Below are positions 5,324 through 58,231 of a DNA stretch of 64,000 bases, one piece after another (within the stretch, counting starts at the first letter, position 1; the number at the start of each line of letters is the position of its first letter). Below the pieces are notes generated by a model, which saw only the letters and a list, made by a program, of their open reading frames with translations, was not told where the DNA came from and searched no databases. Source of the DNA: a virus; IMG/VR virus record IMGVR_UViG_3300002920_000062, positions 6,123 through 70,122 of that record. One strand, given 5' to 3'. The position numbers and the translations under genes were made by a program.

Positions 5324-5647
5324 TCAGTCTGCCTTTTTAATTTTCTTACCGTTTCTATTAGTAGCTAAGCCGAAGGCAATTTTTTCTTCTTCACTGAGCT
5401 TGGACAGAATTTTTTCTTTTTGTTTTTCTAGCTCAATCTTAGCTTCCCTTTCTTTTTTATCTTTTTCTGTTTTTTCATCAAGGCTAGTGACCCATGCTTT
5501 TAGCAACTTGTTCTTCTCTAGAAGCTTTGAAAACTTTGGATCATCTCGGAAGGTTTTAACTAATAAGTCAGCTACCTTCCGTGCATCATCATAACGGGCG
5601 TAGTGATAATATGAACGTTTACCTGAGTCATGATAATTTGCGTGCAT
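5324..5647 (-). CDS. Hypothetical protein
   Basis: 107-aa ORF, C-terminus similar to 4983..5318. Confidence 0.65.
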   Translation of the reverse strand: MHANYHDSGKRSYYHYARYDDARKVADLLVKTFRDDPKFSKLLEKNKLLKAWVTSLDEKTEKDKKEREAKIELEKQKEKILSKLSEEEKIAFGLATNRNGKKIKKAD

Positions 5648-5713
5648 TTTTTAATCCTATAGTTGCTTTAAGAACGACATTACAGTCGTTAATATCTAAA
5701 AGCAACCTAAATA

Positions 5714-6151
5714 TTATAGAATTTTACCCAAAAGCTCTTTCTGTTTATAGAAAGCTTCAAGCTCCCAAGGAAGATTGCGATACTCCTTGAAAGTCATCCT
5801 AGACTGATCAACTCTATATATCTTGCCCTCCCAAAGAATATTACCGGCCCTAGACACAGCTAACCTTTTTTCATATATCTGGTTAATATGAACCAATTCA
5901 TGTATTAATGGCTCAATTAGCTCCTGTAGCGAAAGCTTATTGCTAAGATGTATGATGTGTTTGGCTAAATGAGTCAAAGGAGTTTCAGCATATACATTAT
6001 TACCAAGATTTAAAAATTTGATAGTTATTTCTTTTGGAAGTGTAATATGTAAAAAAATAGCCCGACATAGACTTGTAACCAATTTGGCTTTGTCTATGTC
6101 GGGCTTGGTTTCAAATTCAATATTGACTTTCATCAATGTATTTATAATCAA
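5714..6151 (-). CDS. Zinc metallopeptidase-like protein (HExxH)
   Basis: LIHELVHINQ..YRNLPWELEAF. Confidence 0.75.
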   Translation of the reverse strand: MIINTLMKVNIEFETKPDIDKAKLVTSLCRAIFLHITLPKEITIKFLNLGNNVYAETPLTHLAKHIIHLSNKLSLQELIEPLIHELVHINQIYEKRLAVSRAGNILWEGKIYRVDQSRMTFKEYRNLPWELEAFYKQKELLGKIL

Positions 6152-6187
6152 GTGGTACAGATCTGCGTACTGTTACTGTCTTCTATT

Positions 6188-6520
6188 TCAATGTGTAACT
6201 AGATTTGTCATGCTTGTTGGGGGCACAGTCAATTTGATCCACTGACATACGAAAATAGCGAGGATCAATTTTATCCTAGTAGATAATTTCTCCGATTTAT
6301 AGATTATTGTTGGCCAGCAAGTATAATCAAAAATTAAGTGATTACCCTTGATCAGGACTTTATCTTTATTCTGGTGACCCAGAATAAAGCGAGACTTACA
6401 GTTGATAACAATATCATCCAGCATGTAAACCTTATTGTGTTCTCTAACCTTGGCGTTCCAGCGCTGGGCCATTTCTTCATCCATCTCGGTCACATCATCC
6501 CAGGGGCGAGTCTTGGTCAT
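6188..6520 (-). pseudogene. Truncated/degenerate metallophosphoesterase
   Basis: RPWDDVTEMDEEM..WN..VYMLDD..KVLIKGNH; N-terminal DxH motif and C-terminus lost. Confidence 0.55.
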
Positions 6521-6662
6521 ATCATAATTATGGTATTTTTAGATATTTTGGTGACTATAATATGAGTAGTCAGAGATGTAAAAGTCTTTTTATGTTTTAG
6601 GATACTAATTTAAATTGACATGATATTATACGATTAGTTATGACAAATGATAAATATATGTT

Positions 6663-7418
6663 ATGAGAATACACGAAATTTTAACTGAAAAAGAAGTCAT
6701 TCCTTACCAGTCTGAGCCAATTCACACTGACAAAATTAGTCAACTTGTTGAGTTGGCTAAACAAAATTGCTCGGAATTTTTAGAGAACAACCTCGTTAGT
6801 CCTCTTTGGAGAGGCACCGGCAGAGAACACCCGTACATAAGAATTGTAGATCCTAGTATGGGAGTTAGAAAATCACAAAATACTACTAACCATTATACTG
6901 AATTGATGGATAACTCTCCCTATTATGAAGGATGGCCAAAAAGAGGCAAGTCACTTATCTGTAGCACTTCAAAATACCGGGCTATCGAATACGGAAGATT
7001 GTATGCAGTGTTACCTTTTAACAAAACTAAGATAGCAGTAGCTAGCAAGTCTGATATTTGGTTTACCGACATATATTTCCCAAAACTTGATTGGATTACC
7101 AACTTCTATAAGTTCAATAATTTTATGGGTAATAGAGGTTTGGGATTCCCTGAAAATTACGAAGATATGGTATGGTATAGCAAGAGTGATACTTTCGCCG
7201 ATATCTTTCGTAGAGAATTTTATGATGCATACGACTTTGACCCGTCTAATTTCATAGACTATATACAGAAGTATATGGCACCATACCGAGTTGGGTTCAG
7301 TCTTGAAGATACTTCGTCTTTTAGCACTAACGAATATCCTAAGAAAGAATGTTGGTTTAGTGGCAAATGTATCATAATAGAACAAGACACTTATCAATCA
7401 ATGTTAGAAGCATTTTAG
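6663..7418 (+). CDS. Putative internal head protein with ADP-ribosyltransferase-like fold
   Basis: TAAATA at 6651; MRIHEILTE N-terminus; LWRG..SLICSTS..AIEYG..ECWF; motif-level similarity to the N-terminal domain of 16071..19790. Confidence 0.6.
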   Translation: MRIHEILTEKEVIPYQSEPIHTDKISQLVELAKQNCSEFLENNLVSPLWRGTGREHPYIRIVDPSMGVRKSQNTTNHYTELMDNSPYYEGWPKRGKSLICSTSKYRAIEYGRLYAVLPFNKTKIAVASKSDIWFTDIYFPKLDWITNFYKFNNFMGNRGLGFPENYEDMVWYSKSDTFADIFRREFYDAYDFDPSNFIDYIQKYMAPYRVGFSLEDTSSFSTNEYPKKECWFSGKCIIIEQDTYQSMLEAF

Positions 7419-7654
7419 CCAAATAAGAGATTAAATGGGCTACCTATTTTTAGCCTAAAGCGGGTAATGAAAATCTAACTTGCGCATCTACAATGGCAAG
7501 ATAGCAGGCTAACACTACATAATACCGCATTTATAAACTATACAGCTTCTGCTATCGGCTCTGTCAGCAGATGCATATTGTATATCTTGTATAGCTTCTG
7601 TGTTCTTTAACTTAACATATTCGCCCATTTTTAAGTATACAAGATTGTTTAATC

Positions 7655-7728
7655 TGGAGCTTCGTATGGGAATCGAACCCATGACCTCAGGATGGAAGCC
7701 TGATACGTTACCTCTACGCCAACGAAGC
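7655..7728 (-). tRNA. tRNA-Gly(TCC)
   Basis: Cloverleaf; TCAGG-CTTCCAT-CCTGA anticodon arm; encoded CCA. Confidence 0.9.
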
Positions 7729-7738
7729 ATCTATATCT

Positions 7739-7809
7739 TGCGGAGGTTCGAATCGAACGAACGTAAGGGTAGCTTATGAGACTCCCGGAGATCCAACACT
7801 CGCTCCGCT
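7739..7809 (-). tRNA. Atypical tRNA with CAT anticodon (Met/fMet-like)
   Basis: GCGGAG/CTCCGC acceptor with 1:72 mismatch, CTCATAA loop, bulged anticodon stem, GTTCG-TTCGATT-CGAAC T arm; no CCA. Confidence 0.55.
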
Positions 7810-7835
7810 ACAATATTTATGCCCACTAGAAAATA

Positions 7836-7920
7836 ACAGCATATTTTCAAAAATATGTATTTTTCTCTGTTATGATCTGAATACAGCATATTTTCAAAAA
7901 TATGTATTTTTCTCTGTTAT
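7836..7920. repeat. 38-bp perfect direct repeat, 2 copies (7836-7873, 7883-7920)
   Basis: acagcatattttcaaaaatatgtatttttctctgttat occurs twice, 9 nt apart. Confidence 0.9.
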
Positions 7921-8205
7921 TCTCTTAGTGTAGATGCCGAATCACTATTCGCTAAAGGGGTCCTTTACGGGTTTTATCTAACAATAGATTCACCGACCCA
8001 AAACAATATTTTCTCTACACTTTATAGTGGGCAAATAGTAGAGTAGTAAATTACTTATGTTTTTTCACATTTACTACGTCAAACTATATAGTCTGTATTT
8101 ATTACAAAGCATGAAATTATTGCTTATTATCTCAAAACTATTCTTATTTTTGATGCTCTTAATATAGTCATTCTTGTTACTAATATCAAGAAGTTTTTGC
8201 ATTTT

Positions 8206-8419
8206 GGAGAAGAAAGAGCAAGTCATAGACAATTCAAACTACAAGGGCATTGCCACTATGCAAAAAACAAGCAACAAACTGCATTGCTGCCTATCTCCCA
8301 ACTTACAACTCACAAATCTGAATAAAAGTTGGAACACGCAAGCTAAACCATTGAAGGCTGTTGCTCAGAGTAGTTATTAAAACTACAAGGATGTCTACTC
8401 TAACCTCTCTTTCTTCCCC
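8206..8419 (-). ncRNA. Unannotated ~215-nt structured RNA downstream of coiled-coil gene
   Basis: Ends form a ~24-bp closing helix with G-U pairs only in minus sense; internal hairpins and UUG-rich segments. Confidence 0.65.
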
Positions 8420-8445
8420 TAAGCGGGGGACTAAGCCCCCTAAAC

Positions 8446-9006
8446 TTACAGAATTCCCTGTTCGTTAAGAACCTTAGCAGCATCATCACTTAAAGTGATG
8501 GTTGCTTGAACGTTCAATTCAAGAAGCTTGTCTTGAAGCTTCTGCTTTTCACGCTTCAAAGTCTTCACTGTCTTACGATAGTTGTCAATCTCTTCCTCAG
8601 TAAATACTGTAGTAGAAACTGTCTTAGGTGAATAAAAAGAAGACTCAGAGTTCCCGGCAATCTTCTTTACCTTGGCTTGAATTACATCAATATTGAAGCC
8701 TGCATTCAGTTGAGCAAGGGTTGAGTTAAACTCAATTTCACGCTCTAGGCGGGCTAAGTCTGCAAGAAGATCGTCAATCTGCATTACAGCATTAGTTCGG
8801 GACACACTCTTACGAATCTCATAAAGAGCATCTAATAAACGCTTGCGAAGCGCAACACGCTCTGCAAACTGTGCCCTAGCGGAACTAAGAGTTTCCTCAA
8901 TTGGCATAAATTCGTCTAGCTCTAATGAGCCTACGGGAGTAGTTTCCTTAATAAGCTCGTTAATTGAAGCTTGAATGGCGTTTGCCTTTCGGAGTGTAAT
9001 CTGCAT
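8446..9006 (-). CDS. Coiled-coil protein (DIP1984-like helical hairpin, tentative)
   Basis: Probable start MQITLRKANAIQ at 9006; C-terminal KQKLQDKLLELNVQATITL. Confidence 0.7.
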   Translation of the reverse strand: MQITLRKANAIQASINELIKETTPVGSLELDEFMPIEETLSSARAQFAERVALRKRLLDALYEIRKSVSRTNAVMQIDDLLADLARLEREIEFNSTLAQLNAGFNIDVIQAKVKKIAGNSESSFYSPKTVSTTVFTEEEIDNYRKTVKTLKREKQKLQDKLLELNVQATITLSDDAAKVLNEQGIL

Positions 9007-9073
9007 TTTTTCTTTCTCTATTGAGACTTGATTATAACTAAAAGACACTGAGAATTCAACTATTAAGGGTGAC

Positions 9074-9514
9074 TTATATACCCATGTCGACAAGAATTTG
9101 ATTTACGTCTTGTGGATTGAAACTTCCCTTATAGTTTTGGTTCATATTCTTCATGACAAAGCCACGAAGAGCCTTGCCCTCAGGGCCCTCGTTAACCAAA
9201 TTAGTAACAATAGTATTTAATTCATCTTTAGACAACTGTTGAGGGAGATACTCAGATAATACACTAATTTCAAAATTAAACTTAGCTACGTCACGGTTAG
9301 CCTTGATGGCAAAATCTTTGGTATCGTTCGCGTCCTTAATCATTTTTTTCACTGCTTGGATAACATCATGATCAGTGACTTCACGGTTCTTGTCGTTTTT
9401 GGCAATCAGCTTTGCCCTTGAAATCAAATGCGAAAGAACGTTTTTACGCTCTTTATTGCCTGCTTTCAAGGAAGCAAGCATGTCAGTTTGGACTTTAGCA
9501 AGCATTTCGCTCAT
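9074..9514 (-). CDS. GatB/YqeY domain protein
   Basis: Start MSEMLAKVQ after AAGGA; EISVLSEYLPQQLS motif; the ORF-track extension overlaps a tRNA. Confidence 0.88.
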   Translation of the reverse strand: MSEMLAKVQTDMLASLKAGNKERKNVLSHLISRAKLIAKNDKNREVTDHDVIQAVKKMIKDANDTKDFAIKANRDVAKFNFEISVLSEYLPQQLSKDELNTIVTNLVNEGPEGKALRGFVMKNMNQNYKGSFNPQDVNQILVDMGI

Positions 9515-9532
9515 TTTACTTTTCCTTAGAAT

Positions 9533-9603
9533 TGGTGGCTCTGGGTAGAATTGAACTAACCTTAGCACCCTTATGAGAGGCACCTCACACCCTGGTCAGA
9601 GCC
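9533..9603 (-). tRNA. tRNA(CAT) with reduced D arm
   Basis: GGCTCTG/CAGAGCC acceptor, CTCATAA loop, TTCAATT T loop, ACCA end; 71 nt. Confidence 0.6.
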
Positions 9604-10099
9604 TTTAACTTTATACCCCTACGATATTAACTACCGGAGTTTCTCTTGCTGAAGAATTTCTGATATAAGATTCTACGAACAGGCGAGCATCTTCAATATG
9701 TTCAAAGGTGCGAGCAATACCCGTTTCTCTGTCAGAATCATATGTAATAGATACTACAAACATATTCAATTCTCCTATTGTTTTATTTGGTGATCAAAAG
9801 ATGTTTAATTACAATAGCTCATCCACACTATTAAGATATAAACCGCTCCCGACAATTTGTTTTTGTGTACCTAACATTTCACAATGGTTTCAAAGCCATT
9901 ATGTGAATAGTGGATAACGTGAAGTTGATAATTAACAATAACACTACTTGATAGATTAGTCAACAATTTTTTACTTCTTCATCATGATTGTTTGTTCCGA
10001 GAATTTTGGTTACGAACTATATAAACTCACAAATCAACATCCTGAGGCTACTATCTTAATTGAAAAACGGGAGACGTAAAATCTCAGTAAGTTTATGCT

Positions 10100-10881: not shown

Positions 10882-12099
10882 TTAGCCCTTGACACAAACC
10901 ACTTGCTTAAGAGTGTGGATAATATCAACCAAGTCTGCCTGAGCGACCATTACTTGATCAATGTCCTTGTAGGCAAGGGGAGTTTCGTCGATGACTCCCT
11001 CATCCTTCCTGCATTCAACACCCTGAGTAGCAGCAACATGGTCCTTCAAAGTAAACCTACGTTTTGCTTCTTCTCGGCTCATGGCACGACCTGCACCGTG
11101 TGAGCAAGAACAAAACGACTCATGGTTACCCTTGCCACGAACAATGTACGAACGAGTGCCCATTGAACCAGGGATTATCCCAAGCTCGTTCAACTGAGCC
11201 GATACCGGACCCTTACGGGTAACTAGGATATCCTCACCAAAATGCTTTTCCTTAGAAACATAGTTGTGATGACACTGAACAGCAAGAAGTTCGGTATGGA
11301 ACGGCTTAGAAATGACACTTCTAATAGCATCAATTGCTGCTTCCATCATAACCTCACGATTACTCTGGGCAAAATCTTGTGCCCATAAGACTGCTTGCAT
11401 GTAATCGTTAAAGTGGTCGGTTCCTTCAGGAATATAAGCGAGGTCGATGTCAGGAAGATTTATGAACCACTTACGCATATCCTGTTTAGCCAATTCAATG
11501 AAATAACTACCGATCCTGTTGCCGATACCACGAGAACCAGAATGAAGCATGATCCAAACATAATCTTCTTCGTCAAGACACACTTCAACAAAGTGATTAC
11601 CTGAACCAAGAGTTCCAAAGTGGTTTATTGACCTTTCTGCGGCCGACTTAATCTTGGGGTGCTTGTCAATAATATCCTTCAAGTTTTTTTCATGAGCCGC
11701 AAACTTTACAATAACACTTTCAGCGGGATTAGTCCAAGCTCCCCTGTCATTCTTCCCGCCATTATCAGTCCGTCCATGAGGAATTCTAGACTCAATTACA
11801 GAACGAATACCAAAAAGGTTATCGGGCAGATCTTCTGCACGAAGGCTAGTGCGGCGAGCCATCATTCCGCAACCGATATCTACTCCAACTGCTGCCGGAA
11901 TCACAGCGCCGATCGTCGGGATTACTGAACCCACAGTAGCTTCCATACCCCAGTGTACATCTGGCATAATAGCTACATGTTTATAAATAAACGGCATAGC
12001 GGCAATATTGTCAAGCTGATGACAAGCTTCCCGTTCAACCTGAACGCCGTCTACCCATGCTTTAATAAGCCCGCCCTTACTTCCTCTAATAACCTGCAT
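10882..12099 (-). CDS. rtcB: RtcB RNA 2',3'-cyclic phosphate/5'-OH ligase
   Basis: MPDVH, VGVDIGCG, GTLGSGNHF, HSGSRG, HHNY, PGSMG and SHGAGR motifs; likely start MQVIRG at 12099. Confidence 0.96.
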   Translation of the reverse strand: MQVIRGSKGGLIKAWVDGVQVEREACHQLDNIAAMPFIYKHVAIMPDVHWGMEATVGSVIPTIGAVIPAAVGVDIGCGMMARRTSLRAEDLPDNLFGIRSVIESRIPHGRTDNGGKNDRGAWTNPAESVIVKFAAHEKNLKDIIDKHPKIKSAAERSINHFGTLGSGNHFVEVCLDEEDYVWIMLHSGSRGIGNRIGSYFIELAKQDMRKWFINLPDIDLAYIPEGTDHFNDYMQAVLWAQDFAQSNREVMMEAAIDAIRSVISKPFHTELLAVQCHHNYVSKEKHFGEDILVTRKGPVSAQLNELGIIPGSMGTRSYIVRGKGNHESFCSCSHGAGRAMSREEAKRRFTLKDHVAATQGVECRKDEGVIDETPLAYKDIDQVMVAQADLVDIIHTLKQVVCVKG

Positions 12100-12132
12100 A
12101 ATTACTTCCTTACTATGTACCTTGTTTATAGC

Positions 12133-12239
12133 AGAATGGGTGAGTTTTGACAACACGGCTATTCAAAATATTTGGTACAGTGTGTTCTCTATACACTTTT
12201 GAATAAACTTGCTGTTTTATTTGAAGCTCAAACCATTCC
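12133..12239 (-). promoter_or_regulatory. Long stem-loop in rtcB leader
   Basis: Nested helices GAAUGG/CCAUUC, UGAG/CUCA, UAUUCAAAA/UUUUGAAUA. Confidence 0.5.
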
Positions 12240-13049
12240 CCTAGCAAACAATGCTACTAGCACTACGCATACTGAACTTCATAATCTCTGACATAACTTG
12301 GGCTTTTTATTCTTTTATATACTCTGAGCCACACTAACTGACCAGGCTTGTAGTAGTTTCATTAATCAAATAGGCTGAAAATTAAACCCGATAATTGGGG
12401 ATATAAATGTAAGGTAGAGGGAATAGCTGATCACTATCATATAGATTGCTACATTACTCTGGACAATAATAACATCTCCTCACTTAGCTTCAAACATAGA
12501 CCAGCCGATGTATCTACTAGGCTAAGGGGGGGTCAGTTTCGAGGCAATCCTTTATATTTTTGTGGATGATCTGGGGATCAAACCCAGTAGCATGACTAGA
12601 ATCGACTGTATTTTCGCTATTCGTCTTTCAAGTCATGACTGCCTAAGACAGCCAACTAGGTTATAACCGACATTAAAAAATATATCTGCACAAATAAAAG
12701 TTGTCTTTTAGATGCTCTTTTTCTACCAAGACATAGTTCTCAATGTCTTCCTGCCCCTCTTTGCGAATCTTTACAGCAGCTTTCGGTCTACTGTCTACTG
12801 GCATTCTACCAATAATCTCTTTAATGTAAGAATTGGGATACCGATCCTTAAAAGAAAAACTGGGTAATGCTCATATATTTACTCACTATAAAAACTATAC
12901 TCTCGGCAAAGAACTATCCTGTGCAGAATGTCCTAAACTATTCTGTATCCTCTTGCGAGAGTGAGACAAAGAGCTTTGGGGCTTGCTTTGACTTGATTAG
13001 ACTTAGTGGGCCCCTCTGAGATTAGAACCCAGTAGTCTGTCTATTAGTT

Positions 13050-13126
13050 TGGTGCACCTGGTGGGGTTCGAACCCACATGCGCACGGATTAAAAGTCCGC
13101 CGTTCGGCCTATTGAACTACAGGTGC
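13050..13126 (-). tRNA. tRNA-Lys(TTT)
   Basis: Cloverleaf; GCGGA-CTTTTAA-TCCGT; CCA. Confidence 0.92.
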
Positions 13127-13494
13127 ACTAATTCACTAATTGTCACAATATATATTCTACAAATATCTCATTGTCAACTGATTTTTGATGTCAGGCTATT
13201 TTACTCGTGTTATCCAACTTAAATTTTCAGGGAACTTATTGTGCCTTTTGTTATTTTCTACAATTCTAGTATCATAATAGATTTGAACTTATTTGTTTCA
13301 TCAAAAACATCTATTCAAGTAGCGAGAAGCAGCGCACCTAGCAATATCTAGCAATTTACGAAACGCCATTCGGGCTTCTCGTCACTTGATATGTCATATA
13401 TACAATATTTCTTGCTACATGTCAACCCTTAAAATCAAACTTAGAAGCATCCCAAACTATAATTATACCTCAGTTGGTGTTTGGTGAGAAAGTT

Positions 13495-13662
13495 TCAGTC
13501 CTCATACAGAAATTCTTCACTGAGGTTGTTGAAGGCTCGGCGCTGCTTGCGGCGAGTAATCTGCTTAATACCACGCTTATCACAGTTCCAGTATTCATCC
13601 CAGCGATCATTAATATCATAATCAGCAAAGGCTTGATGGTTCTTGCGATAGGTACGTGCCAT
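13495..13662 (-). CDS. Small basic hypothetical protein
   Basis: MARTYRKN start after AGGAG. Confidence 0.55.
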   Translation of the reverse strand: MARTYRKNHQAFADYDINDRWDEYWNCDKRGIKQITRRKQRRAFNNLSEEFLYED

Positions 13663-13762
13663 TGTAAATACTCCTAAAAAGATGTAGTCAGATAGTTGTG
13701 TGAGTAGCATCAAGATGCGATAAACTTAATCATCTATCATCTGTCTTCTACTTACAATCTTT

Positions 13763-13789
13763 CATAGCAGTTTGGGTAAACACTGTCAA
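13763..13789 (-). promoter_or_regulatory. Early sigma70-type promoter with TACCCAAA spacer motif
   Basis: TTGACAgtgttTACCCAAActGCTATG; related copies at ~39168-39195, ~39805-39832 and ~47945-47971. Confidence 0.65.
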
Positions 13790-13797
13790 TAGAAAAA

Positions 13798-14316
13798 TCA
13801 GATTTTGTATCTTTTCCTAATTTCAATAAACGCTTCCATATTTCCCTTAGCATCATCAAGCGGATTATGGGTGTGTTTAGTCTTTCTAAAATTTTTCCAC
13901 TCAGACTGTATATAAAGGTTATTGTTTAACCCTGCATACAAATCACCAATTCGTCTAGCACTATGACCGAAAGGATTCTTTATATTGTTAGAGTTAAAAA
14001 GCCAATTAATCCACTGCCAGTCAAACGCTGGGTTGTCTGACCAAAATGTCGGGAAATTTTTGAACTGACTAAGCCATTGTTGAAAACGATACGCTTCATT
14101 ACTGAAAGAACCAGTATAAGATAAATGTTCTTCGCGAGTGATACCTATTACAGTATATGCATCGGGATCAAACTTATCAAACATGGGTGCAAACTTGTCT
14201 GAGACAAATGTTTCCCCCGTTTCTGCAATTGCAGCAAAGTTGATCAGATCACCAGATATAGGGCAGGGACCTGATGCTTCACAATCAACAATAATGTTTA
14301 TGGTTTTTCCTTCCAA
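13798..14316 (-). CDS. DEDD 3'-5' exonuclease (Rv2179c-like exoribonuclease)
   Basis: IVDCEASGP, DNPAFDW, HTHNPLDDA. Confidence 0.85.
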   Translation of the reverse strand: MEGKTINIIVDCEASGPCPISGDLINFAAIAETGETFVSDKFAPMFDKFDPDAYTVIGITREEHLSYTGSFSNEAYRFQQWLSQFKNFPTFWSDNPAFDWQWINWLFNSNNIKNPFGHSARRIGDLYAGLNNNLYIQSEWKNFRKTKHTHNPLDDAKGNMEAFIEIRKRYKI

Positions 14317-14672
14317 ATATTTACCTCTTCGCTATAGTATCCGTTGGACTCGCCCAAGAACCGAACTGTGACATAACCCTTAAACGTGGCAAATGAATAA
14401 AAAGTCCAAGTATAGCTTTCGCTATTACGCTCGGGGGCATTATTTACGTTGCTATCATGTCTAGCAACAAGCAAGGGAATTCCTTCCAAGTCACTCAAAT
14501 CACCGATTGTTTCTTCAACAAACACTGATTCGCAACATTCTTGATTATGACCAAACACATATCTGTTCTGTTCATTTTCAAATACAAGTCTTTCATTATC
14601 ATAGATAAGCTTTACCTTAGTAAAAATCTGGCCTACCATTTCGTCTAACAAATTTTGATACCTATATTCCAT
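14298..14672 (-). CDS. Conserved phage hypothetical protein
   Basis: HNQECCESV..SYTWTFY..GESNGYYSE motif; overlaps neighbour. Confidence 0.75.
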   Translation of the reverse strand: MEYRYQNLLDEMVGQIFTKVKLIYDNERLVFENEQNRYVFGHNQECCESVFVEETIGDLSDLEGIPLLVARHDSNVNNAPERNSESYTWTFYSFATFKGYVTVRFLGESNGYYSEEVNIWKEKP

Positions 14673-14673
14673 A

Positions 14674-15153
14674 TCAGAACTTTTTTCCTAATTGTTTCAA
14701 AGCACGATCATAATGCTTCTGCTTGATACCAAGGCCGTCCTCAATCAAAATCAAGTTAGGTAAATCAGAAAAATTTCTGTCATCAAAACACACCCAATTG
14801 TCAACATAATAATGTGTTGCTAACCAAATATCAATAGCATATAGCCTACCAATTCCACGAACTGTGCTATTAATTTGCTTATAGTCTATGTTAGGAAAGA
14901 TAGTTCTCCAGTCATCATGAAAATATTCTTCTTTAATTCCCCACTTGACCAAATCTTCTTTTAGTGTCCCATCTTTGTAGTCATTGTAATTATGCATACT
15001 GTTGGTAACAATTTTTGCGTTAGTTTGTTCGCATAATTCATTTAGCCTTAGAATTGCTTCATAATTATGCACTAACCTAAATATACTATCGTAAGTAGGA
15101 ACATTGATGGGAATGACTGGCCCATCAATGTCTAAAAAGATGATCTTATTCAC
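14674..15153 (-). CDS. HAD phosphatase (Swiss-Army-Knife RNA-repair type)
   Basis: KIIFLDIDGP, AKIVTNS, WVCFDD. Confidence 0.8.
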   Translation of the reverse strand: MNKIIFLDIDGPVIPINVPTYDSIFRLVHNYEAILRLNELCEQTNAKIVTNSMHNYNDYKDGTLKEDLVKWGIKEEYFHDDWRTIFPNIDYKQINSTVRGIGRLYAIDIWLATHYYVDNWVCFDDRNFSDLPNLILIEDGLGIKQKHYDRALKQLGKKF

Positions 15154-16027
15154 TTGTTAACTTATTCACTAATTCTATAAATCTATCTTTCTGATAAAGC
15201 TTTTCAAGCCATTCAATGGGAATGTTCTTCATACCATAAAAAGCCCCAGCAATCTGTCCTGTTACGGCTGCAACTGTGTCTGCATCTCCGCCGAGGTTTG
15301 TAGCAAGAAGTATTGCATCCTTGAAGTTATTCGTGTGCCTAAATGACCACAATGCAGCGTGAAGAGTATCAATTACGTAACCTGAACTGGATACTTCATC
15401 ACGGCTTACGTCAAGTGTATTCATGATATTCTTGACACTTTCAAGAGTTACTACAACATGTGTGTTGAAAACTTGATCCTTGGTAGTTGCTGTAAATGCA
15501 TTAAGAAGAATGTTAGTTAGCAACATACATGATTCAATGCATTCATCAGATGCATGTGTTGTTTTACTTTGTATAACAGCATCAAAATAAGCCTGATCAG
15601 GATTATTGTGATGCTTGATTGCAACAGGTGCCAATCGCATAATAGAACCATTCCCCGAGTATCGGGAATTTGAGTTATTAACTACACTACCACTGATTTT
15701 CCAATTTAAAATGGCCACATAAGTGTTATGACCAATATCAAAACAATAGCCTGTTGAACTATTCGTTCCTTTATAAAACCAATCACTGAAACGTTGAAGA
15801 AGGTCTGTTTCTTCTACCTTGCCATGCGCAATAATGTTTTCAGCAAGACAAAGTGCCATGCTTGTATCGTCAGTAAAGTAGCCTGCAGGAAGATTGAAGG
15901 GACCCTTGCCCACCATATCAGATACTGGTTCAAATGTGTCTCTATCACAAAACTCAACCGTGGTCCCCACAGCATCACCAATTGCCAGGCCCAAAAATGA
16001 ACCATATAACTTATCTTTGTCTATCAT
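15146..16027 (-). CDS. ADP-ribosylglycohydrolase (DraG/ARH family)
   Basis: GLAIGDAVG, FTDDTSM, FDIG, GNGSIMR, GGDADTVAAV; likely start MIDKDK at 16027. Confidence 0.95.
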   Translation of the reverse strand: MIDKDKLYGSFLGLAIGDAVGTTVEFCDRDTFEPVSDMVGKGPFNLPAGYFTDDTSMALCLAENIIAHGKVEETDLLQRFSDWFYKGTNSSTGYCFDIGHNTYVAILNWKISGSVVNNSNSRYSGNGSIMRLAPVAIKHHNNPDQAYFDAVIQSKTTHASDECIESCMLLTNILLNAFTATTKDQVFNTHVVVTLESVKNIMNTLDVSRDEVSSSGYVIDTLHAALWSFRHTNNFKDAILLATNLGGDADTVAAVTGQIAGAFYGMKNIPIEWLEKLYQKDRFIELVNKLTSE

Positions 16028-16070
16028 ATAACATCCTTTCACGATGTTATACAATTATTTTGTTACAATG

Positions 16071-19000
16071 TCAAGACAATTTTTTAACTTCGTCTGCACC
16101 TACTGTTATAAGGTTCTTGGCTTGGTCAGAGAGGTCATACACTAATAAAACTTCTCGGTCCTTTGTCATATGTTTTACTTTGTATTTTTTTCCCGCGTAC
16201 TGAGGGTATTTTACAATATCTACCTCGACAATGTCGCCTATTTCAATCTTACTAAAAGTAGGATTAATTGAAGTATTTGTTTCTATCTTGGTAAGTGAAG
16301 AAAGCTCAATTGTGGTGGGATTTTCTGGGCCGTCAGGAGGAATAACAACGTCAGCAAACGTATCACCCACTGCCTGCACTATGCCTATCTTTCCAAATAG
16401 CTTAGACCAAGATGATTTTACCTTAACTTTATCTCCGACTTGTATTTTATCTGCGTGGATAGGTTGAGGAATATCTTTATCAGGAATTCTTTTAACGCTG
16501 GTGTTATTAAAGATAATAGTATCTTTAGTGCCAATCAGTTTAACATATAACATCGAATTTTTTGTATCTACAATAACGCCAGTTTTACCGAATAAAGAAA
16601 GCTTTGGGTTGATTACCTCTATCTTTTCGCCCACTTTATACATTGGTATCTTAGACAGTTGAGTAGTATCAAAGGAAAACTCTTTACCAAATTTATCTCC
16701 CTCAAGTATTTTTACTAAGAGAGGGTCGCTATTAGTAACCATTCCCAATGTACCGTTTGCTACAATTGGGCTTTTATTAAATTCTACGATGTCGCCGTAT
16801 TTGAAATCATTTTTTTGTTTTACTACTAATTCAAGTTCGTCTTGATCAAAATGTATATCACTATGTGCATCAGAAAACTTAACGCCGTACCCCAATTCCT
16901 TTTTAGGTATAAATGTTACTTTACCGATTTTACCGAAATACACACTATCTGGTTCAATTACTTTTACAGTATCACCAATTTGAAACTTTTGTCCAGGTAT
17001 AGGCTCTTTGGTTTTGATTTTTTCAATTTGATCTTTAGTTACGTAAAATTCTACCTGTGAAGTTTTCTCTTTTACATCAAAATTACCGTCAACCCAAACA
17101 AAGTCAATGTACCCTTCTTTACCGTAGAATTTATGCGACGGGTCAACTACCTTAACTTTATCACCAACTTTAAACTTGTCTTTGCTAAAACTATCTATTT
17201 TTTTCAAGTAGGATTTATCAGGAACAGTAATAATTTTTGAAGTTCCTTCCACTTTTATGTAAATCAAATCAAATGTTGATATATATTCAATTGTGCCCTT
17301 AGTTCCTTTTGCTGCGTCATGTACTGATTTGATTAATTCTACCTTATCTCCTTCTACAGGGTTAAAAGTATTAGACGCTTCTTCTGGATCTTCTTTTTTT
17401 CCATTGTTGGCTACTAGCTCTAACTCTTTTTCTTTATATGCCAATACTCCTTGGGGAGTACTGACTTTAATGAACGAACCATCATTATCAACAACTTCCC
17501 CCTCGAACCCGGTTAAACCACCAGAGATTATCTTTACCTTATCGCCTATCTTAAACTTTTTAGTAGATTCTATAGTAATATCATTGGGTGTTGCTATAAT
17601 AGTCTTTCCACTTTCAGTGTATAATTCCACGGCAAACACGGCAAGATTATCGTCTTTAGTATATGTGAATCCACGAACTACCAAATTGCCATCATCTGAA
17701 CCCAATTCGTCATTATTGACAATTACTTTATCTCCAATGTTAATTGCAGTACCTTTGCTATCTTTTATTATTTTGGGTTCAACATCATAAACTGTTGTTT
17801 TAAGTGTATTACCCGTGTAAAACTGTATAATGATGTCGTCATCTTCTTTGTCTATTACCACACCCCTCGAGCCGGTAGCTCCACCTTTTATAACTTTTAC
17901 TACGCTGCCAACTACTATGTCTATTTTATTATGAGTTGCTTCTTGATTGTGCTTGAACAGGTGTTTTAGGCTAATATATTGGTATTTGGTATTTTCTCCC
18001 ACTAATTGAACACCAGCTTGACCACTGTTTTGTACCGAAATAATCACACCAATCTTGCCATCATACTCAGATCCTTCTTTCTTTATGAGAACAGTGTCGC
18101 CGGATGCGATCGGTTCTTTGATTTTGTCCTTATTCTCACTTTTAAATCCAATCTGAGTGGGCTTAAAAATAAAGTTTATGAATGACTTGTCAATACGTAC
18201 ATCATAACTCACTGTGTCATAAGTAAAGACATATACTATAGTTCCTGTAAGTTGATAGAATGGGCTATCTGGGTCAATGATTACTACTCTATCATTTACT
18301 TGGAACATAGAAATTTTTAGTTCCTCATATTTTTTTTTAGTTTCGGGGGTGCTTTTTACTAGTTCAAAATTATAAAAATAGTAGGACTTGTCGTTCGGCT
18401 TGTCAAATTTGACACCAACAATGGATTCATTATCTTTTATTTCAATGACTTCTCCTTCATAACCGCGAAGGGCGGAGTTTTTAGAGGTTGGTATTACTTT
18501 ATCGCCTTTTTTCCACTTCCATTGATTTTTGTCAATTACTTCTAAATCATCGAAGGGAATATCGAAAATAATATTGCCGTCAAAACTAGTCTTTACATTA
18601 GCTTGTTGATTTGATACCTCATAAACTATACCAATTTTACCAGAATCACTACCATTGACAATTTTTACTATATCATTAATGAACTTTAATTCTTTTGTGA
18701 GTTTGCCGTATTTTTCAGGAAGTTCAACATCGGTTAGGTCTAAGTCAGAGATGAACTTGCATATGCTTTTAGTATATTTGGCGTTAATAGCATAATATTT
18801 ACTGTTAATATATATTTCATTTTTTGATAAAATTGCACCGTAAATATCATTATCGACAAAATTGAATTTTTGTTTTGGTTTATTGTCCTCATTATATATT
18901 TGTTCTAGCAAAGAACCAACTTTTTTTGGAAGAACCCCCTTTTCAACCAACTTGGCAAGTTTGCGCATATCTTTGTTGTGAGAATAAGAAGTGTCAGTCA

Positions 19001-19790
19001 ATAACAGATTGATTGAGGTTATGTCATCAAACTCTTGTTTTATTTTGTCTCCTTCAGATGCTTCTTTCCAAGTCTTTCTAACAATCTCTATAATTTCTGT
19101 AACCACGTCACTATTGAGAAAGGTAGTCAGATAATTAAAGTCACTTAAAATCAAGTCTTTAATATTTTTGCTATAACAAAAATCGAATCCGTCTACTGGG
19201 AAAATAATATATTCCTCACCATACTTAGAAGCCTGTTTTCTATCACCTGTTGCAAATATTGAGTTGGATCGTCTTGCTTTAATTCCCATTCTTTTCATAT
19301 AATCGTCGGCAAGTTTATTTATAAACTCGTCGCTGTCTTTGGGCAGCCTGTTAGTGTATGGTGTTCCGTAAAAAGCATCTTTCTGGGACCTAATTCCTCT
19401 GAATAAAAAGTTGTTGGAAGTTAGGTCTTTGTTGTTAATCTGCTGATAAACTTTTAAAATCTGGCTGCAATTTTTCTTGATACCTTTGAGTAAATTTTCT
19501 AACTTGATGGGAGTATCACCTTTACCTATTAACCTCTTGTTCAATTCATTATATTCGCGTTCTAACTTTTCTGTAAAGATGGCTATTTTTTCTGCCAATT
19601 GGTTTTGTTCTTTTTGTAACTCAGCCGGCAAAGAAATATTCTTCATGGAAGAAAATGAATGTTGATACTTTTGAATCTTTTCTTTCATTTTTTCAAGCTT
19701 ATTTAATTTAAAAGATAAAGCTTTCTTCTCACCGGGCGCAACTGAACCTTCAGCTAATATACTGTCTAATCGTGCCAACAAGTCTTTCAT
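16071..19790 (-). CDS. 1239-aa protein: ART-like domain plus 14 tandem KOW/SH3-like repeats
   Basis: FLFRG..SIFATG..ASKYG..NEIY domain, then 14 (F/I)xxGDxVxx..GxxGxV units; ILAE/G processing-like site. Confidence 0.75.
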   Translation of the reverse strand: MKDLLARLDSILAEGSVAPGEKKALSFKLNKLEKMKEKIQKYQHSFSSMKNISLPAELQKEQNQLAEKIAIFTEKLEREYNELNKRLIGKGDTPIKLENLLKGIKKNCSQILKVYQQINNKDLTSNNFLFRGIRSQKDAFYGTPYTNRLPKDSDEFINKLADDYMKRMGIKARRSNSIFATGDRKQASKYGEEYIIFPVDGFDFCYSKNIKDLILSDFNYLTTFLNSDVVTEIIEIVRKTWKEASEGDKIKQEFDDITSINLLLTDTSYSHNKDMRKLAKLVEKGVLPKKVGSLLEQIYNEDNKPKQKFNFVDNDIYGAILSKNEIYINSKYYAINAKYTKSICKFISDLDLTDVELPEKYGKLTKELKFINDIVKIVNGSDSGKIGIVYEVSNQQANVKTSFDGNIIFDIPFDDLEVIDKNQWKWKKGDKVIPTSKNSALRGYEGEVIEIKDNESIVGVKFDKPNDKSYYFYNFELVKSTPETKKKYEELKISMFQVNDRVVIIDPDSPFYQLTGTIVYVFTYDTVSYDVRIDKSFINFIFKPTQIGFKSENKDKIKEPIASGDTVLIKKEGSEYDGKIGVIISVQNSGQAGVQLVGENTKYQYISLKHLFKHNQEATHNKIDIVVGSVVKVIKGGATGSRGVVIDKEDDDIIIQFYTGNTLKTTVYDVEPKIIKDSKGTAINIGDKVIVNNDELGSDDGNLVVRGFTYTKDDNLAVFAVELYTESGKTIIATPNDITIESTKKFKIGDKVKIISGGLTGFEGEVVDNDGSFIKVSTPQGVLAYKEKELELVANNGKKEDPEEASNTFNPVEGDKVELIKSVHDAAKGTKGTIEYISTFDLIYIKVEGTSKIITVPDKSYLKKIDSFSKDKFKVGDKVKVVDPSHKFYGKEGYIDFVWVDGNFDVKEKTSQVEFYVTKDQIEKIKTKEPIPGQKFQIGDTVKVIEPDSVYFGKIGKVTFIPKKELGYGVKFSDAHSDIHFDQDELELVVKQKNDFKYGDIVEFNKSPIVANGTLGMVTNSDPLLVKILEGDKFGKEFSFDTTQLSKIPMYKVGEKIEVINPKLSLFGKTGVIVDTKNSMLYVKLIGTKDTIIFNNTSVKRIPDKDIPQPIHADKIQVGDKVKVKSSWSKLFGKIGIVQAVGDTFADVVIPPDGPENPTTIELSSLTKIETNTSINPTFSKIEIGDIVEVDIVKYPQYAGKKYKVKHMTKDREVLLVYDLSDQAKNLITVGADEVKKLS

Positions 19791-19833: not shown

Positions 19834-19849
19834 TATTTATGCATAAATA
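19834..19849. promoter_or_regulatory. Palindromic back-to-back late promoters
   Basis: TATTTATGCATAAATA gives ATAAATA on both strands between divergent genes. Confidence 0.7.
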
Positions 19850-19854
19850 ACATT

Positions 19855-20517
19855 ATGCTTATCAAAGAAATTTACGAACCCATAACTGAAGGCATACATG
19901 ACCCAAACATTTTCAAAGCTGTATTCATGGCAGGAAGCCCCGGCTCGGGTAAAACTACTATAGCAAAGAAAATATTTGGGGGCACCGGGATGAAATTTTT
20001 AAACGTGGATGACTTCTATAATTACCTGCGCCAGTCTGAGAAGACAGTAGGTGACCCCGAAACAGACTATACCACGGCGTGGGAAAAGTATCGCAAGCGT
20101 GAGAAAAACTATCTAGACGGTAGACTGGGACTTGTCATTGACGGAACAGGAAAAAACCCAGCTATCATGCGCGATGTTAAGAGTAGACTTGAAGGACTGG
20201 GCTATGAAACTGGGATGATATTTGTTAACACAACTTTACAAACAAGCCTCGAACGTGCTAAAAAAAGAGCTAACCAACCCGGCAAAGATGCCGGAAGAAA
20301 GATTGATCCTTCTTTTATTAAGTTGACTTGGGAACGTGTGCAGAGAGGATTGGGTCAGTTACAGAATATATTTCAAGAGCGTTTTTTTATTGTTGACAAC
20401 AATAGTAATATAAATGATGTAGATATTTCATATGTAGAAAAATATATGAATAACTGGTTAAATACGCCGCCCAAGAGCCACATTGCCAAACAATGGATTG
20501 CGTCACAAAAACTTTAG
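19855..20517 (+). CDS. P-loop kinase (zeta-toxin/AAA_33-like), putative head protein
   Basis: AGSPGSGKT Walker A, NVDD, LVIDGTG; MLIKEIYEPITE N-terminus. Confidence 0.8.
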   Translation: MLIKEIYEPITEGIHDPNIFKAVFMAGSPGSGKTTIAKKIFGGTGMKFLNVDDFYNYLRQSEKTVGDPETDYTTAWEKYRKREKNYLDGRLGLVIDGTGKNPAIMRDVKSRLEGLGYETGMIFVNTTLQTSLERAKKRANQPGKDAGRKIDPSFIKLTWERVQRGLGQLQNIFQERFFIVDNNSNINDVDISYVEKYMNNWLNTPPKSHIAKQWIASQKL

Positions 20518-40112: not shown

Positions 40113-41654
40113 TCAAGAGCGTTTTTCTCTACCTACATTGCCAACTGACAAGTCTGCTTGCCTGTGTGGTTTTCTACTCTTACCCAATGCAATACTTGCT
40201 GCCATGTCTCTGAATTCATTATCAGTTGGGACACGAATCTGTCTAGGAGATATTTCAATTTTTGTATCTTTAGGAATGCCGCCACCTCTATCAATTTTGA
40301 ATGTAAAATTTCCTTTAATACCAGTACTATAATAAGTTTTTTCTGCTGATAGATACACTCCAGTGATTAATTTGCTAGGGTAAATTGTGCTAAACTCTTC
40401 AAGAACCCAAGTATCTTTCTTTTCTTTGGCCTTAGTATAGACCTGCACTAACGCGCTATTATTCAATATATCTGATGCTGCTTTGCTAAACTCACCATCT
40501 TTGTTTACCTTAGCGGCAACTTCAAAAGCAATCGCTGCCATAATATGGTAAAATAAATCTAGACTATGTGGGTTGGTAGCATTTCTTTTTCTAGCAATTT
40601 CTTTGATATTATCAGAAATATCTAAAAATTCAAGATCTTCCATATTAATTAGTGGCTTATTTCTAAGGGACAATATTTCATTTACTTCTTTTTGAGAAAT
40701 AATCTCAAACTTCGTAGCTAAAAAGAGCGGAGCGCCTACTTGTCCACGAGTTTTAATTTCGTTGATGATATCAATTGTGTCTTTGTATTTCTCTTTAAGT
40801 TCTGAACCTCTGACAGTTTCTTCTAATTCGTTAATGCTGTTTATTAAATTTGAAACACTGGCTGTTGCTCCTCTTCCCCCTTTTGTACTAACCTTTATTT
40901 TTCTTCCATCAATTTTAGATAAAATACTATCACTTAGCCCTGCTGTTTTACTTTGGTCAAATGATATGTAGGTGTCTTCAAAGGAGCCATCTAAGAAAAT
41001 ATCTGCTACTTCTTGCGCGTTTCCCGTAAATTGTCCATTTTGTAATGCAATCGGCTGTAGTATCTCACAAAAATAATCGCGGAAACTTGTGAAGCTTACG
41101 TCTTTGGGTTTGGGAAATTCAATAGGAAATTTTTCCCCAGATGCAACTTGATACGCTAAGTCATACAATGGATGTCTTGTTCCAAGACTAATTGCTAATT
41201 GGTCTAGGATATCATCGGATGTCAAGTCAGACATATTAGTCAACAGGTCTTGTGGTGTAAGCTTATCTTGTATTTTGGTTGCTGATTTACCTACATATCT
41301 GAAATCACCCACACGGTTAGGGACAAAATTATTAGTAAAGTTGGGCTTGATGTTTTCAAGATACTTACCGAACACAAAAGTGTTTTCGAAGGAATCATAA
41401 AATTTAGCTATTGCGATTCCGCCGCTTTTAGAACTTCTTGTGTTTAACCAGGAAATATTGTTCTCAGACTCTAAATGTCTGACCATATTATCTAGTTCTT
41501 GTGGCTCCAATCGTCCACCGTTTGTTGGGAAGAACTCAATACCTTTAAAGTAAATCTCTTTACCATTGCTGTCCCTGAACACATCACCAACCTTACGGTT
41601 GGCTAGTCCTGTGCTTTCCTCTAAACTTTCAAGATGTTGTAATATATTGCGCAT
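40113..41654 (-). CDS. Late protein, possible PD-(D/E)xK nuclease fold, putative head protein
   Basis: TAAATA 5 nt before ATG; LESLEE/S site; GLSDSIL..IKVSTKGG motif. Confidence 0.6.
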   Translation of the reverse strand: MRNILQHLESLEESTGLANRKVGDVFRDSNGKEIYFKGIEFFPTNGGRLEPQELDNMVRHLESENNISWLNTRSSKSGGIAIAKFYDSFENTFVFGKYLENIKPNFTNNFVPNRVGDFRYVGKSATKIQDKLTPQDLLTNMSDLTSDDILDQLAISLGTRHPLYDLAYQVASGEKFPIEFPKPKDVSFTSFRDYFCEILQPIALQNGQFTGNAQEVADIFLDGSFEDTYISFDQSKTAGLSDSILSKIDGRKIKVSTKGGRGATASVSNLINSINELEETVRGSELKEKYKDTIDIINEIKTRGQVGAPLFLATKFEIISQKEVNEILSLRNKPLINMEDLEFLDISDNIKEIARKRNATNPHSLDLFYHIMAAIAFEVAAKVNKDGEFSKAASDILNNSALVQVYTKAKEKKDTWVLEEFSTIYPSKLITGVYLSAEKTYYSTGIKGNFTFKIDRGGGIPKDTKIEISPRQIRVPTDNEFRDMAASIALGKSRKPHRQADLSVGNVGREKRS

Positions 41655-57737: not shown

Positions 57738-58100
57738 TTATTTAGGATATCCTTTGAACCCTTTTATCGGGCTTTGTGTATTTGTGCTGGCTAGTTCTTC
57801 GCTAGAATCATCGCCGTGGTTGAGGTCTTCCCACTTAGCTCCAACTGATTGGTATGCCAACTTAAGCATGTTTTCTTCTTCTTTAGTATAAGGGTGTGCT
57901 GATTTGAATTTTCCTATCCAAGAATCCTTGTGAGCAAACCCAAGTTCTTTGTCGCTTGCCCCGGCTACAGCCATCATAACTCTGTTCATAACGTAATCAC
58001 TATTGAAACGTTCTTTGTCGGCATAAATATGCAGGCCGCGAGTGGGATATTTCAATCGTTTGGGCATTTTATCTTCGTTTATGAACTCGCTAGCTCTCAT
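57738..58100 (-). CDS. Putative internal head protein
   Basis: TAAATA; MRASEFINE N-terminus. Confidence 0.7.
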   Translation of the reverse strand: MRASEFINEDKMPKRLKYPTRGLHIYADKERFNSDYVMNRVMMAVAGASDKELGFAHKDSWIGKFKSAHPYTKEEENMLKLAYQSVGAKWEDLNHGDDSSEELASTNTQSPIKGFKGYPK

Positions 58101-58107
58101 AGTAGTA

Positions 58108-58231
58108 TTTATATAAGTTTGTAACTTTCACCGTCTTTAATGAGAGCAAATTCATAAATAAGAATCTTGGAACTAATATTCTTTGCTGCTATCTGACGAT
58201 TGTATTCCAATAGGAATTCTTTTGCTCTTAT
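58108..58231 (-). pseudogene. Internally deleted third paralogue of 58228..59514
   Basis: 68 bp matching 59444-59511 (1 mismatch) fused in frame to a short C-terminus; ATG changed to ATA. Confidence 0.7.

Follow-up and report, generated by a model that had tools for sequence, protein, structure and literature searches.

The stretch analyzed here, hereafter the window, comprises 64,000 nucleotides (positions 6,123 to 70,122) of the IMG/VR virus record IMGVR_UViG_3300002920_000062. Its minus strand carries a gene (16071–19790) for a 1239-residue protein in which a predicted ADP-ribosyltransferase (ART)-fold domain is joined to a long array of KOW-type repeats. This ART-KOW gene is followed on the same strand by the gene for an ADP-ribosylhydrolase (ARH; 15146–16054), and on its other side lies a divergently oriented gene (19855–20517, plus strand) for a Zeta-toxin/AAA_33-type P-loop kinase. 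The open reading frame (ORF) and its translation confirm the 1239-residue protein of the original prediction, including the ILAE/G site at residues 11–15 and the Arg, Ser, and Glu that it had placed in R–S–E order in FLFRG, SIFATG, and NEIY; these residues are R131, S177, and E325.

The protein starts with MKDLLARLDSILAE/GSVAPGEKK, the slash marking a candidate cleavage site for a gp21-type protease. Based on the N-terminal pattern across the family, residues 1–14 (19749–19790) appear to be a leader similar to the capsid-targeting sequence of T4. Residues 15–95 (19506–19748) comprise a conserved PGEKK..SF strand and a helical, coiled-coil-like linker, which gives weak matches to spectrin/ATG17-type coiled-coil Pfam models and is missing from short family members. 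The divergent ART-fold domain itself (N-domain) spans residues 96–360 (18711–19505) and holds, in this order, FLFRG (R131), RRSNSIF (R174, N176, S177) with the overlapping SIFATG, and NEIY (E325); the codons of the candidate catalytic residues lie at 19398–19400 (R131), 19260–19262 (S177), and 18816–18818 (E325). According to the secondary structure of the model, residues 214–314 (18849–19151) form a helical insertion between strands 4 and 5 of the ART core, at the position of the ADP-ribosylating turn-turn (ARTT) loop. The remainder of the protein, residues 366–1239 (16074–18695), consists of 14 tandem repeats. The same architecture is found in 15 long relatives.

Assignment of the N-domain to the ART fold comes from structure prediction. 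In the AlphaFold2 model of the domain (pLDDT 88), the approximately 100-residue helical insert interrupts a β-core, and when this model was compared using VIA-align, just two matches span the core: BC2332 (Z 5.8) and Arr, the rifampin ART (Z 5.0). Because the insert dominated this first match list, a 188-residue homolog without it was folded instead (pLDDT 93.7); the insert is absent or short in homologs of 190–220 residues. When the short-homolog model was compared with 48,161 solved chains using VIA-align, only 74 chains reached Z ≥ 2, and the top 11 all belong to the ART superfamily. The best match was again BC2332 (Z 6.4, rmsd 3.2, 122 residues aligned), which is classified as SCOP d.166.1.6 in the ADP-ribosylation superfamily (PMC3000352; also PMC3024214), followed by Arr (Z 5.2, rmsd 3.9, 91 residues aligned), Spx (Z 4.5), diphtheria toxin and cholix toxin (both Z 4.2), and exotoxin A (ExoA; Z 4.0). 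DarT, AvrPphF (AvrPphF-ORF2), PARP16, and CteC are also among the leaders, and further PARPs, OspC3/CopC, SopF, TreX, Tpt1, and pertussis toxin appear lower in the list. Despite the modest Z scores, we consider an ART fold well supported by these models because the match list is almost exclusively ART. R131, S177, and E325 are located at the starts or ends of the expected strands in the model (strands 1, 2, and 5, respectively), an order that fits the R–S–E pattern. The helical insert would sit where the ARTT loop lies, and it may be involved in substrate recognition.

Conservation was assessed in 96 family members with 25–39% identity to the window's domain. None of them deviates at R148 or D212, and C108, R131–G132, R174, N176, S177, F179, and E325 are each conserved in at least 90% of the members, whereas the residue two positions before the invariant Glu varies (K, E, G, S, R, T, or Y). 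Distant paralogs in the same genome keep the R, S, D, and E. One of these is a 251-residue protein encoded in the window at 6663–7418 (plus strand; family hidden Markov model (HMM), E 1.4e-14), which retains the R (LWRG), S, D, and E (KECW).

These data bear on the possibility that the protein is a noncatalytic structural or decoration protein, in which an inactive ART-like fold anchors a chain of KOW beads in or on the particle. Such a role would be compatible with the virion association of homologs described below, with a repeat number that varies from 1 to 14, and with the lack of a detectable sequence link to active ARTs. However, R131, R148, R174, S177, D212, and E325 are strictly conserved at approximately 25% identity, also in distant paralogs, which points to an active site, and the family is tied to a kinase with an intact P-loop. 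Because of the conserved polar residues, we regard a purely structural role as very unlikely.

The N-domain family is large and confined to phages: an exhaustive HMMER search retrieved 2992 cluster representatives at E ≤ 1e-3. The N-domain matches phrog_11975 (4.9e-34), and this and all other PHROG matches are annotated as function unknown. Its ESM Atlas neighbors are viral hypothetical clusters only; the nearest cluster bearing a Pfam annotation, DUF2441 (score 0.84), was treated as a lead only. In a literature search, we found no description of the family, its partnership with the kinase, or the ART-KOW fusion. The half-complete genome to which the window belongs contains at least four family copies, two of which are tandem short paralogs outside the window (genome record 170544–174266; 737–1510 and 1507–2259 of locus L015). 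Tandem arrays of five to eight ART-like paralogs, some only approximately 200 residues long, are present in IMG/VR contigs L050, L052, L053, L056–L058, and L062, and in phage Atu_ph07 the number of paralogs reaches 13. Such arrays look like the rapid gene-family expansion seen in conflict systems. The N-domain is 33–40% identical between contigs in which neighboring genes are 52–80% identical. Taken together, the fast divergence of the N-domain, the paralog arrays, and the variable KOW copy number are suggestive of conflict-type evolution, as judged from sequence comparison.

The N-terminal region suggests how the protein might be delivered. Long and short family members share the N-terminal pattern M[KR]..[LF][IL]xE/AxVxPGE[RK]K, and E14 is invariant in 16 long relatives. 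For comparison, T4 IPIII and IPII start with MKTYQEFIAE/A; in T4, gp21 cuts a ten-residue capsid-targeting sequence after Glu, and a seven-residue propeptide is removed from Alt (PMC9026906). Among the proteins encoded by the window's genome is a gp21-type prohead protease (PF03420, E 5.3e-25), and the N terminus of the kinase, MLIKEIYEPITE/G, likewise resembles the T4 leader. No capsid-targeting-like leader was found at the N terminus of the ARH.

Homologs of the N-domain have been detected in virions. The 13 family copies of Atu_ph07 are mostly encoded by the tandem genes gp53–gp63 (numbering verified against CDS 49 and the listed masses), and all products of gp53–gp63 are present in purified virions, with 3 to 31 unique peptides each (PMC6102473, Table S5). 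The 87-kDa gp53 reached its highest abundance in a gel band below the 30-kDa proteins (PMC6102473); processing is suggested, possibly cleavage by the prohead protease. The gp53 sequence (5485–7821 of locus L028; AUZ94865.1) has VTE/G at residues 250–252, between its ART-like and kinase domains.

Several other genes of the window also encode T4-like leaders. ORFs beside the large terminase gene (54966–56972), at 57738–58100, 58228–59514, and 60839–62095, and a further ORF at 40113–41654, all on the minus strand, start with MRASEFINE, MRAKEFLLE, MRFYEFLVE, and MRNILQHLESLEE/S. The 428- and 418-residue proteins among them are paralogs (phrog_28193/17056, function unknown). The products of these ORFs may be further capsid-internal proteins. 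A candidate late promoter, CATAAATA, lies 44 nt upstream of the ART-KOW gene; it was not used as evidence for late expression since the heptamer ATAAATA is only mildly enriched (45 occurrences versus 32.7 ± 5.5 expected) and often lies 2–8 nt before start codons, in gene orientation (e.g., at 6650, 19843, 41660, 44873, 54949, and 58106). A palindrome containing ATAAATA, TATTTATGCATAAATA, is located between the ART-KOW gene and the kinase gene (19834–19849). The heptamer may function like a T4 late promoter or in translation start.

The kinase, which the original prediction had overlooked, is a recurrent and conserved partner of the family. It matches Pfam Zeta_toxin (5.9e-14), has an intact P-loop, and is 40% identical (E 9e-48) to residues 250–454 of Atu_ph07 gp53, whose N terminus is an ART-like domain. 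Both halves of this fusion are covered by phrog_12810, which the window's short paralog at 6663–7418 matches at positions 13–249 (1.5e-30) and the kinase at positions 259–464 (7.7e-43). In phage RsoM2USA, a kinase homolog directly follows an ART-like gene, and among KOW-less IMG/VR loci the kinase abuts family genes in 13 of 26, several of these contigs being near-identical.

This partnership allows a more far-reaching scenario, in which jumbo-phage capsids deliver a widespread two-enzyme payload, the Zeta-like kinase and the ART-fold enzyme acting in tandem, while in one lineage the KOW arm would aim the pair at transcription–translation or RNA machinery and the cotranscribed Tri1-like hydrolase would reset the modification in the producing cell. 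By analogy with AvrRxo1, which phosphorylates NAD/ADP-ribose (PMC5491322), the kinase could make a phosphate acceptor or phosphorylate NAD/ADP-ribose, after which the ART-fold enzyme could add ADP-ribose. We consider the complete scenario improbable.

Residues 366–1239 contain 14 units of GDxVxV...GxxGxV, as the original prediction had counted, and the units measure 57–70 residues each. With an HMM built from the units, the 179.5-kb genome record yielded 14 matches and no more, each of them within the 1239-residue ORF. The repeat profile matches the KOW domain of Spt5 (E 2.7e-9 to 1e-8), then uL24 (approximately 1e-4), followed by PsaE and NdhS; by these profile matches and the repeat alignment, the units are KOW-type SH3-like barrels, which bears out their proposed KOW/SH3 identity. 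The protein as a whole reaches 15.8 bits with the Pfam KOW model, under the cut-off of 22.3, and the repeats give weak matches to NCBIfam NusG/UpxY models. Copy number in the family ranges from 1 to 14, with 1–13 detectable repeats in 31 of the 150 top representatives. In locus L036 (IMGVR_UViG_3300008108_000736), the ART-KOW gene is split into ORFs at 6920–9199 (760 residues, seven repeats) and 9203–9859 (219 residues, three repeats) of that locus, which could reflect a stop codon, a frameshift, or misassembly within the repeat array.

The ARH was correctly recognized in the original prediction as an adjoining DraG-type hydrolase. It matches PF03747 (Pfam ADP_ribosyl_GH) with E 1.6e-67 and 228.6 bits (cut-off 26.2), over profile positions 1–285 of 287, and carries the metal-binding motifs GDAVG, DDTS, and GGDADT. 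Its likely start codon is the ATG at 16027, behind a Shine–Dalgarno-like AAAGGA site and 43 nt past the stop codon of the ART-KOW gene. The closest relative is Tri1 (NCBIfam, 7e-100; PDB 6dre, 3.8e-74), making the enzyme DraG/Tri1-type. The score with the Tri1 equivalog NF041672 is 334 bits, under the cut-off of 490, and the alignment covers residues 69–357 of Tri1 only, the N-terminal toxin-blocking extension being missing.

Downstream of the ARH gene, and on the same strand, Pfam and PHROG matches identify HAD_SAK (14674–15153), DUF7448 (14298–14672), an RNase T-like exonuclease (13798–14316), and RtcB (10882–12156), so that the RNA-repair genes span 10882–15153. The order ART-KOW, ARH, HAD_SAK, DUF7448, exonuclease, RtcB is conserved in related contigs, and the genes for ARH, HAD, DUF7448, and the exonuclease overlap or nearly abut. 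Genes for cREC, TilS, YqeY, and tRNAs are located near the operon.

The original prediction combined the ART-like protein and the hydrolase into a writer–eraser module, in which transcription or translation factors of the host are the substrates of the ART-KOW protein and the ARH is the dedicated eraser or producer-cell antidote, as in Tre1–Tri1 or DraT–DraG. In that prediction, the KOW array would steer the enzyme to the host expression machinery. The directly downstream, same-strand position of the ARH gene agrees with this proposal, as do its similarity to an immunity hydrolase, Tri1, and the distribution of leaders, which are present on the ART-KOW protein and the kinase but not on the ARH. 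ART–ARG pairs are already known in Aeromonas phages (PMC9503650). Moreover, none of the 11 KOW-bearing contigs lacks the gene pair, although ARH identities go down to 53%, and the kinase is always upstream. However, HAD_SAK follows the ARH in these contigs wherever the contig extends that far. Since the 11 contigs represent a single lineage, with the repair genes traveling along, the adjacency counts as one evolutionary observation. The pairing is not kept across independent lineages: the ARH is coupled to none of the 26 KOW-less family loci and was not found in Atu_ph07 (13 family copies) or RsoM2USA (five copies). Conversely, Serratia phage BF, Salmonella phage Munch, and their relatives have ARH orthologs (43–46% identity) and neither an ART-like family member nor HAD_SAK or kinase genes near the ARH. 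The lack of Tri1's inhibitory N-terminal extension and of an ExE motif, which makes for a poor fit with an arginine-type hydrolase, also argues against the module. We therefore regard the writer–eraser reading as lineage-limited and unproven, and as a doubtful explanation of the locus as a whole. That the ARH serves as a producer-cell antidote or eraser within this lineage is possible, if still rather uncertain; the alternative is that it belongs to a repair or antidefense operon.

Some further features of these genomes concern ADP-ribose metabolism and the surroundings of the ARH. The stand-alone orthologs of BF (6246–6986 of locus L025) and Munch (6412–7028 of locus L026) each lie behind an unannotated gap of 0.6–0.7 kb. 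NAD salvage genes (NadR-like, PnuC) are found 4–5 kb downstream of the ARH in BF, and tRNAs, an exoribonuclease, and a peptidyl-tRNA hydrolase near that of Munch. Atu_ph07 and RsoM2USA encode macro domains distant from their ART-like arrays. None of the five records (the window genome, Atu_ph07, RsoM2USA, BF, and Munch) contains an Alt-type ART (PF03496).

The company of repair genes raises the question of whether the ART-fold enzyme itself acts in RNA repair, by KptA/Tpt1-like (or repair-linked phage sirtuin-like) transfer of ADP-ribose to RNA phosphate ends. In this scheme, the kinase and the HAD phosphatase would make or remove ends, the KOW repeats would hold a tRNA or the ribosome, and the ARH would clear ADP-ribose adducts before sealing by RtcB. 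The gene does lead the compact operon described above, with cREC, TilS, YqeY, and tRNA genes nearby, and NAD-dependent phage repair neighborhoods with cREC, a nucleotide kinase, and HAD-SAK have been reported (PMC9503650). Tpt1 structures occur in the fold list, at Z scores of only 2.4–3.2 with the short-homolog model, and the 1239-residue protein has no Pfam match to PTS_2-RNA (KptA/Tpt1) up to E 1. In addition, most family members reside in paralog arrays with no repair genes near, the Atu_ph07 members are virion proteins, evolution of the N-domain far outpaces that of the repair genes (33–40% versus 52–80% identity), and ligation by RtcB yields no 2′-phosphate needing removal. Both a repair function of the enzyme and the accompanying division of labor thus seem unlikely.

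With moderate confidence, we favor a different reading, in which the 1239-residue protein is a packaged effector with an ART fold, Alt-like but unrelated to Alt, that has a copackaged kinase and, in this lineage, a KOW arm. The protein is probably a capsid-internal effector of a T4-like jumbo phage that is ejected into the host. Its leader would bring it into the prohead, and the gp21-type protease of the phage would remove this leader by cleaving behind E14. Once ejected into a new host cell, the protein would ADP-ribosylate a target at the expense of NAD+ through its ART-fold domain, with R131, S177, and E325. Substrate recognition would fall to the large helical insert located where ARTs have their ARTT loop, and the KOW barrels, strung like 14 beads, would form an arm that targets or tethers the enzyme. 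The protein likely works with the neighboring Zeta-like kinase, which bears a similar leader. The ARH has no leader and therefore should remain in the producing cell.

Several observations weigh against this reading, and most of them concern the enzyme. The 1239-residue protein has no match to any ART-clan model in Pfam, the N-domain is unmatched in Pfam, NCBIfam, and PADLOC, and the 96 relatives give no ART-clan Pfam match at E 0.01 or even E 10. Neither phmmer nor profile searches of the PDB produced an ART match for the domain; a Cas7c tail match (E 0.017) in the PDB profile search was judged to be chance. Comparison with T4 ModA and ModB using hhalign gave probabilities of approximately 1% or less, with only the LYRG/LWRG stretch aligned, which is not significant. 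Arginine-directed ARTs are expected to have an ExE (or QxE) motif, and no such motif was found at strand 5 in the family. Foldseek searches of the PDB returned nothing significant for either model, and all VIA-align Z scores are below 8. The ART-like assignment of the original prediction thus stands at the level of the predicted fold, through BC2332 and Arr, but it lacks a sequence-profile link and the ExE/QxE signature. As for the tail, the slight acidity of the KOW array (pI 5.8) speaks against nonspecific binding of nucleic acids. As for packaging, the ART-KOW gene stands at the head of the RNA-repair operon and not in the head-gene cluster, and none of the KOW-bearing members comes from a cultured phage, so that virion presence is known for KOW-less homologs only. 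Within that limit, the leader, the gp21-type protease, and the Atu_ph07 virion proteins make the proposed packaging and injection plausible.

The implications reach beyond this locus. The analysis points to a phage-only family with a predicted ART fold that is far larger, with approximately 3000 cluster representatives and up to 13 copies per genome, and it carries no Pfam or functional PHROG annotation, such that existing sequence surveys would overlook it. The conserved kinase partner and the published virion evidence provide direct experimental handles, and the unusual KOW-array architecture could show how an enzyme tethers to host RNA polymerase, the ribosome, or RNA. The analysis also corrects the writer–eraser interpretation, which was attractive but weakly founded.

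Phages classically use packaged ARTs, T4 Alt among them, to take over the host, and the window's protein resembles Alt in several ways. Each is encoded by a T4-like phage that also has a gp21-type protease, each begins with a leader that resembles a propeptide and has Glu as its last residue, and each is a large multiregion protein with an ART-fold domain, observed or predicted, and R, S, and E in this order; homologs of the window's protein are found in virions. On the other hand, there is no sequence homology with Alt/VIP2, and PF03496 is absent from both the protein and the genome record. The window's protein lacks ExE, has a helical insert at the ARTT-loop position as well as a 14-KOW tail and a conserved kinase partner, and in structure comparison it comes closest to BC2332, Arr, and diphtheria-toxin-type folds, not to C3/VIP2 folds. 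The leader is similar in style to the capsid-targeting sequences of T4 IPI–IPIII (MKTYQEFIAE/A in IPII/IPIII versus M[KR]..[LF][IL]xE/A in the family), but it runs into the AxVxPGE[RK]K strand, which packs onto the domain in the model, and it is best described as a candidate targeting leader.

In Tre1–Tri1, DraT–DraG, and the ART–ARG pairs of Aeromonas phages (PMC9503650), as in the window, an ART-fold gene lies beside a gene for a DraG/Tri1-type hydrolase on the same strand. The window's ART is from an unrelated family, however, its pairing is limited to one lineage, and its hydrolase is without the occluding N-terminal extension of Tri1 and is translationally coupled to RNA-repair genes. The NAD-dependent KptA/sirtuin repair neighborhoods of phages (PMC9503650, section 3.7.3) similarly combine an NAD-utilizing fold with a nucleotide kinase, cREC, a HAD-SAK phosphatase, and an RNA ligase. 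They differ in that the window encodes RtcB as its ligase and an ART-fold domain other than KptA, and in that the family overall is unlinked to repair genes and has virion-packaged members. The KOW domains of Spt5/NusG and uL24 share the GDxVxV..G..G.V motif with the window's repeats (best profile E 2.7e-9), whereas the window's array has 14 tandem copies, no NGN domain, and a mildly acidic character, and its single repeats score under the Pfam gathering threshold.

The closest counterpart is Atu_ph07 gp53 (phrog_12810), which combines the same ART-like domain with the same kinase. There, the two are fused into one polypeptide, whereas they are separate genes in the window; gp53 has no KOW array and extends by approximately 320 further residues at its C terminus. 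Phage ARTs that are packaged and ART–ARG pairs of phages are already known (PMC9503650); what is new is a previously unannotated family that is recognizable only by its fold, its partnership with a kinase, and the 14-KOW architecture.

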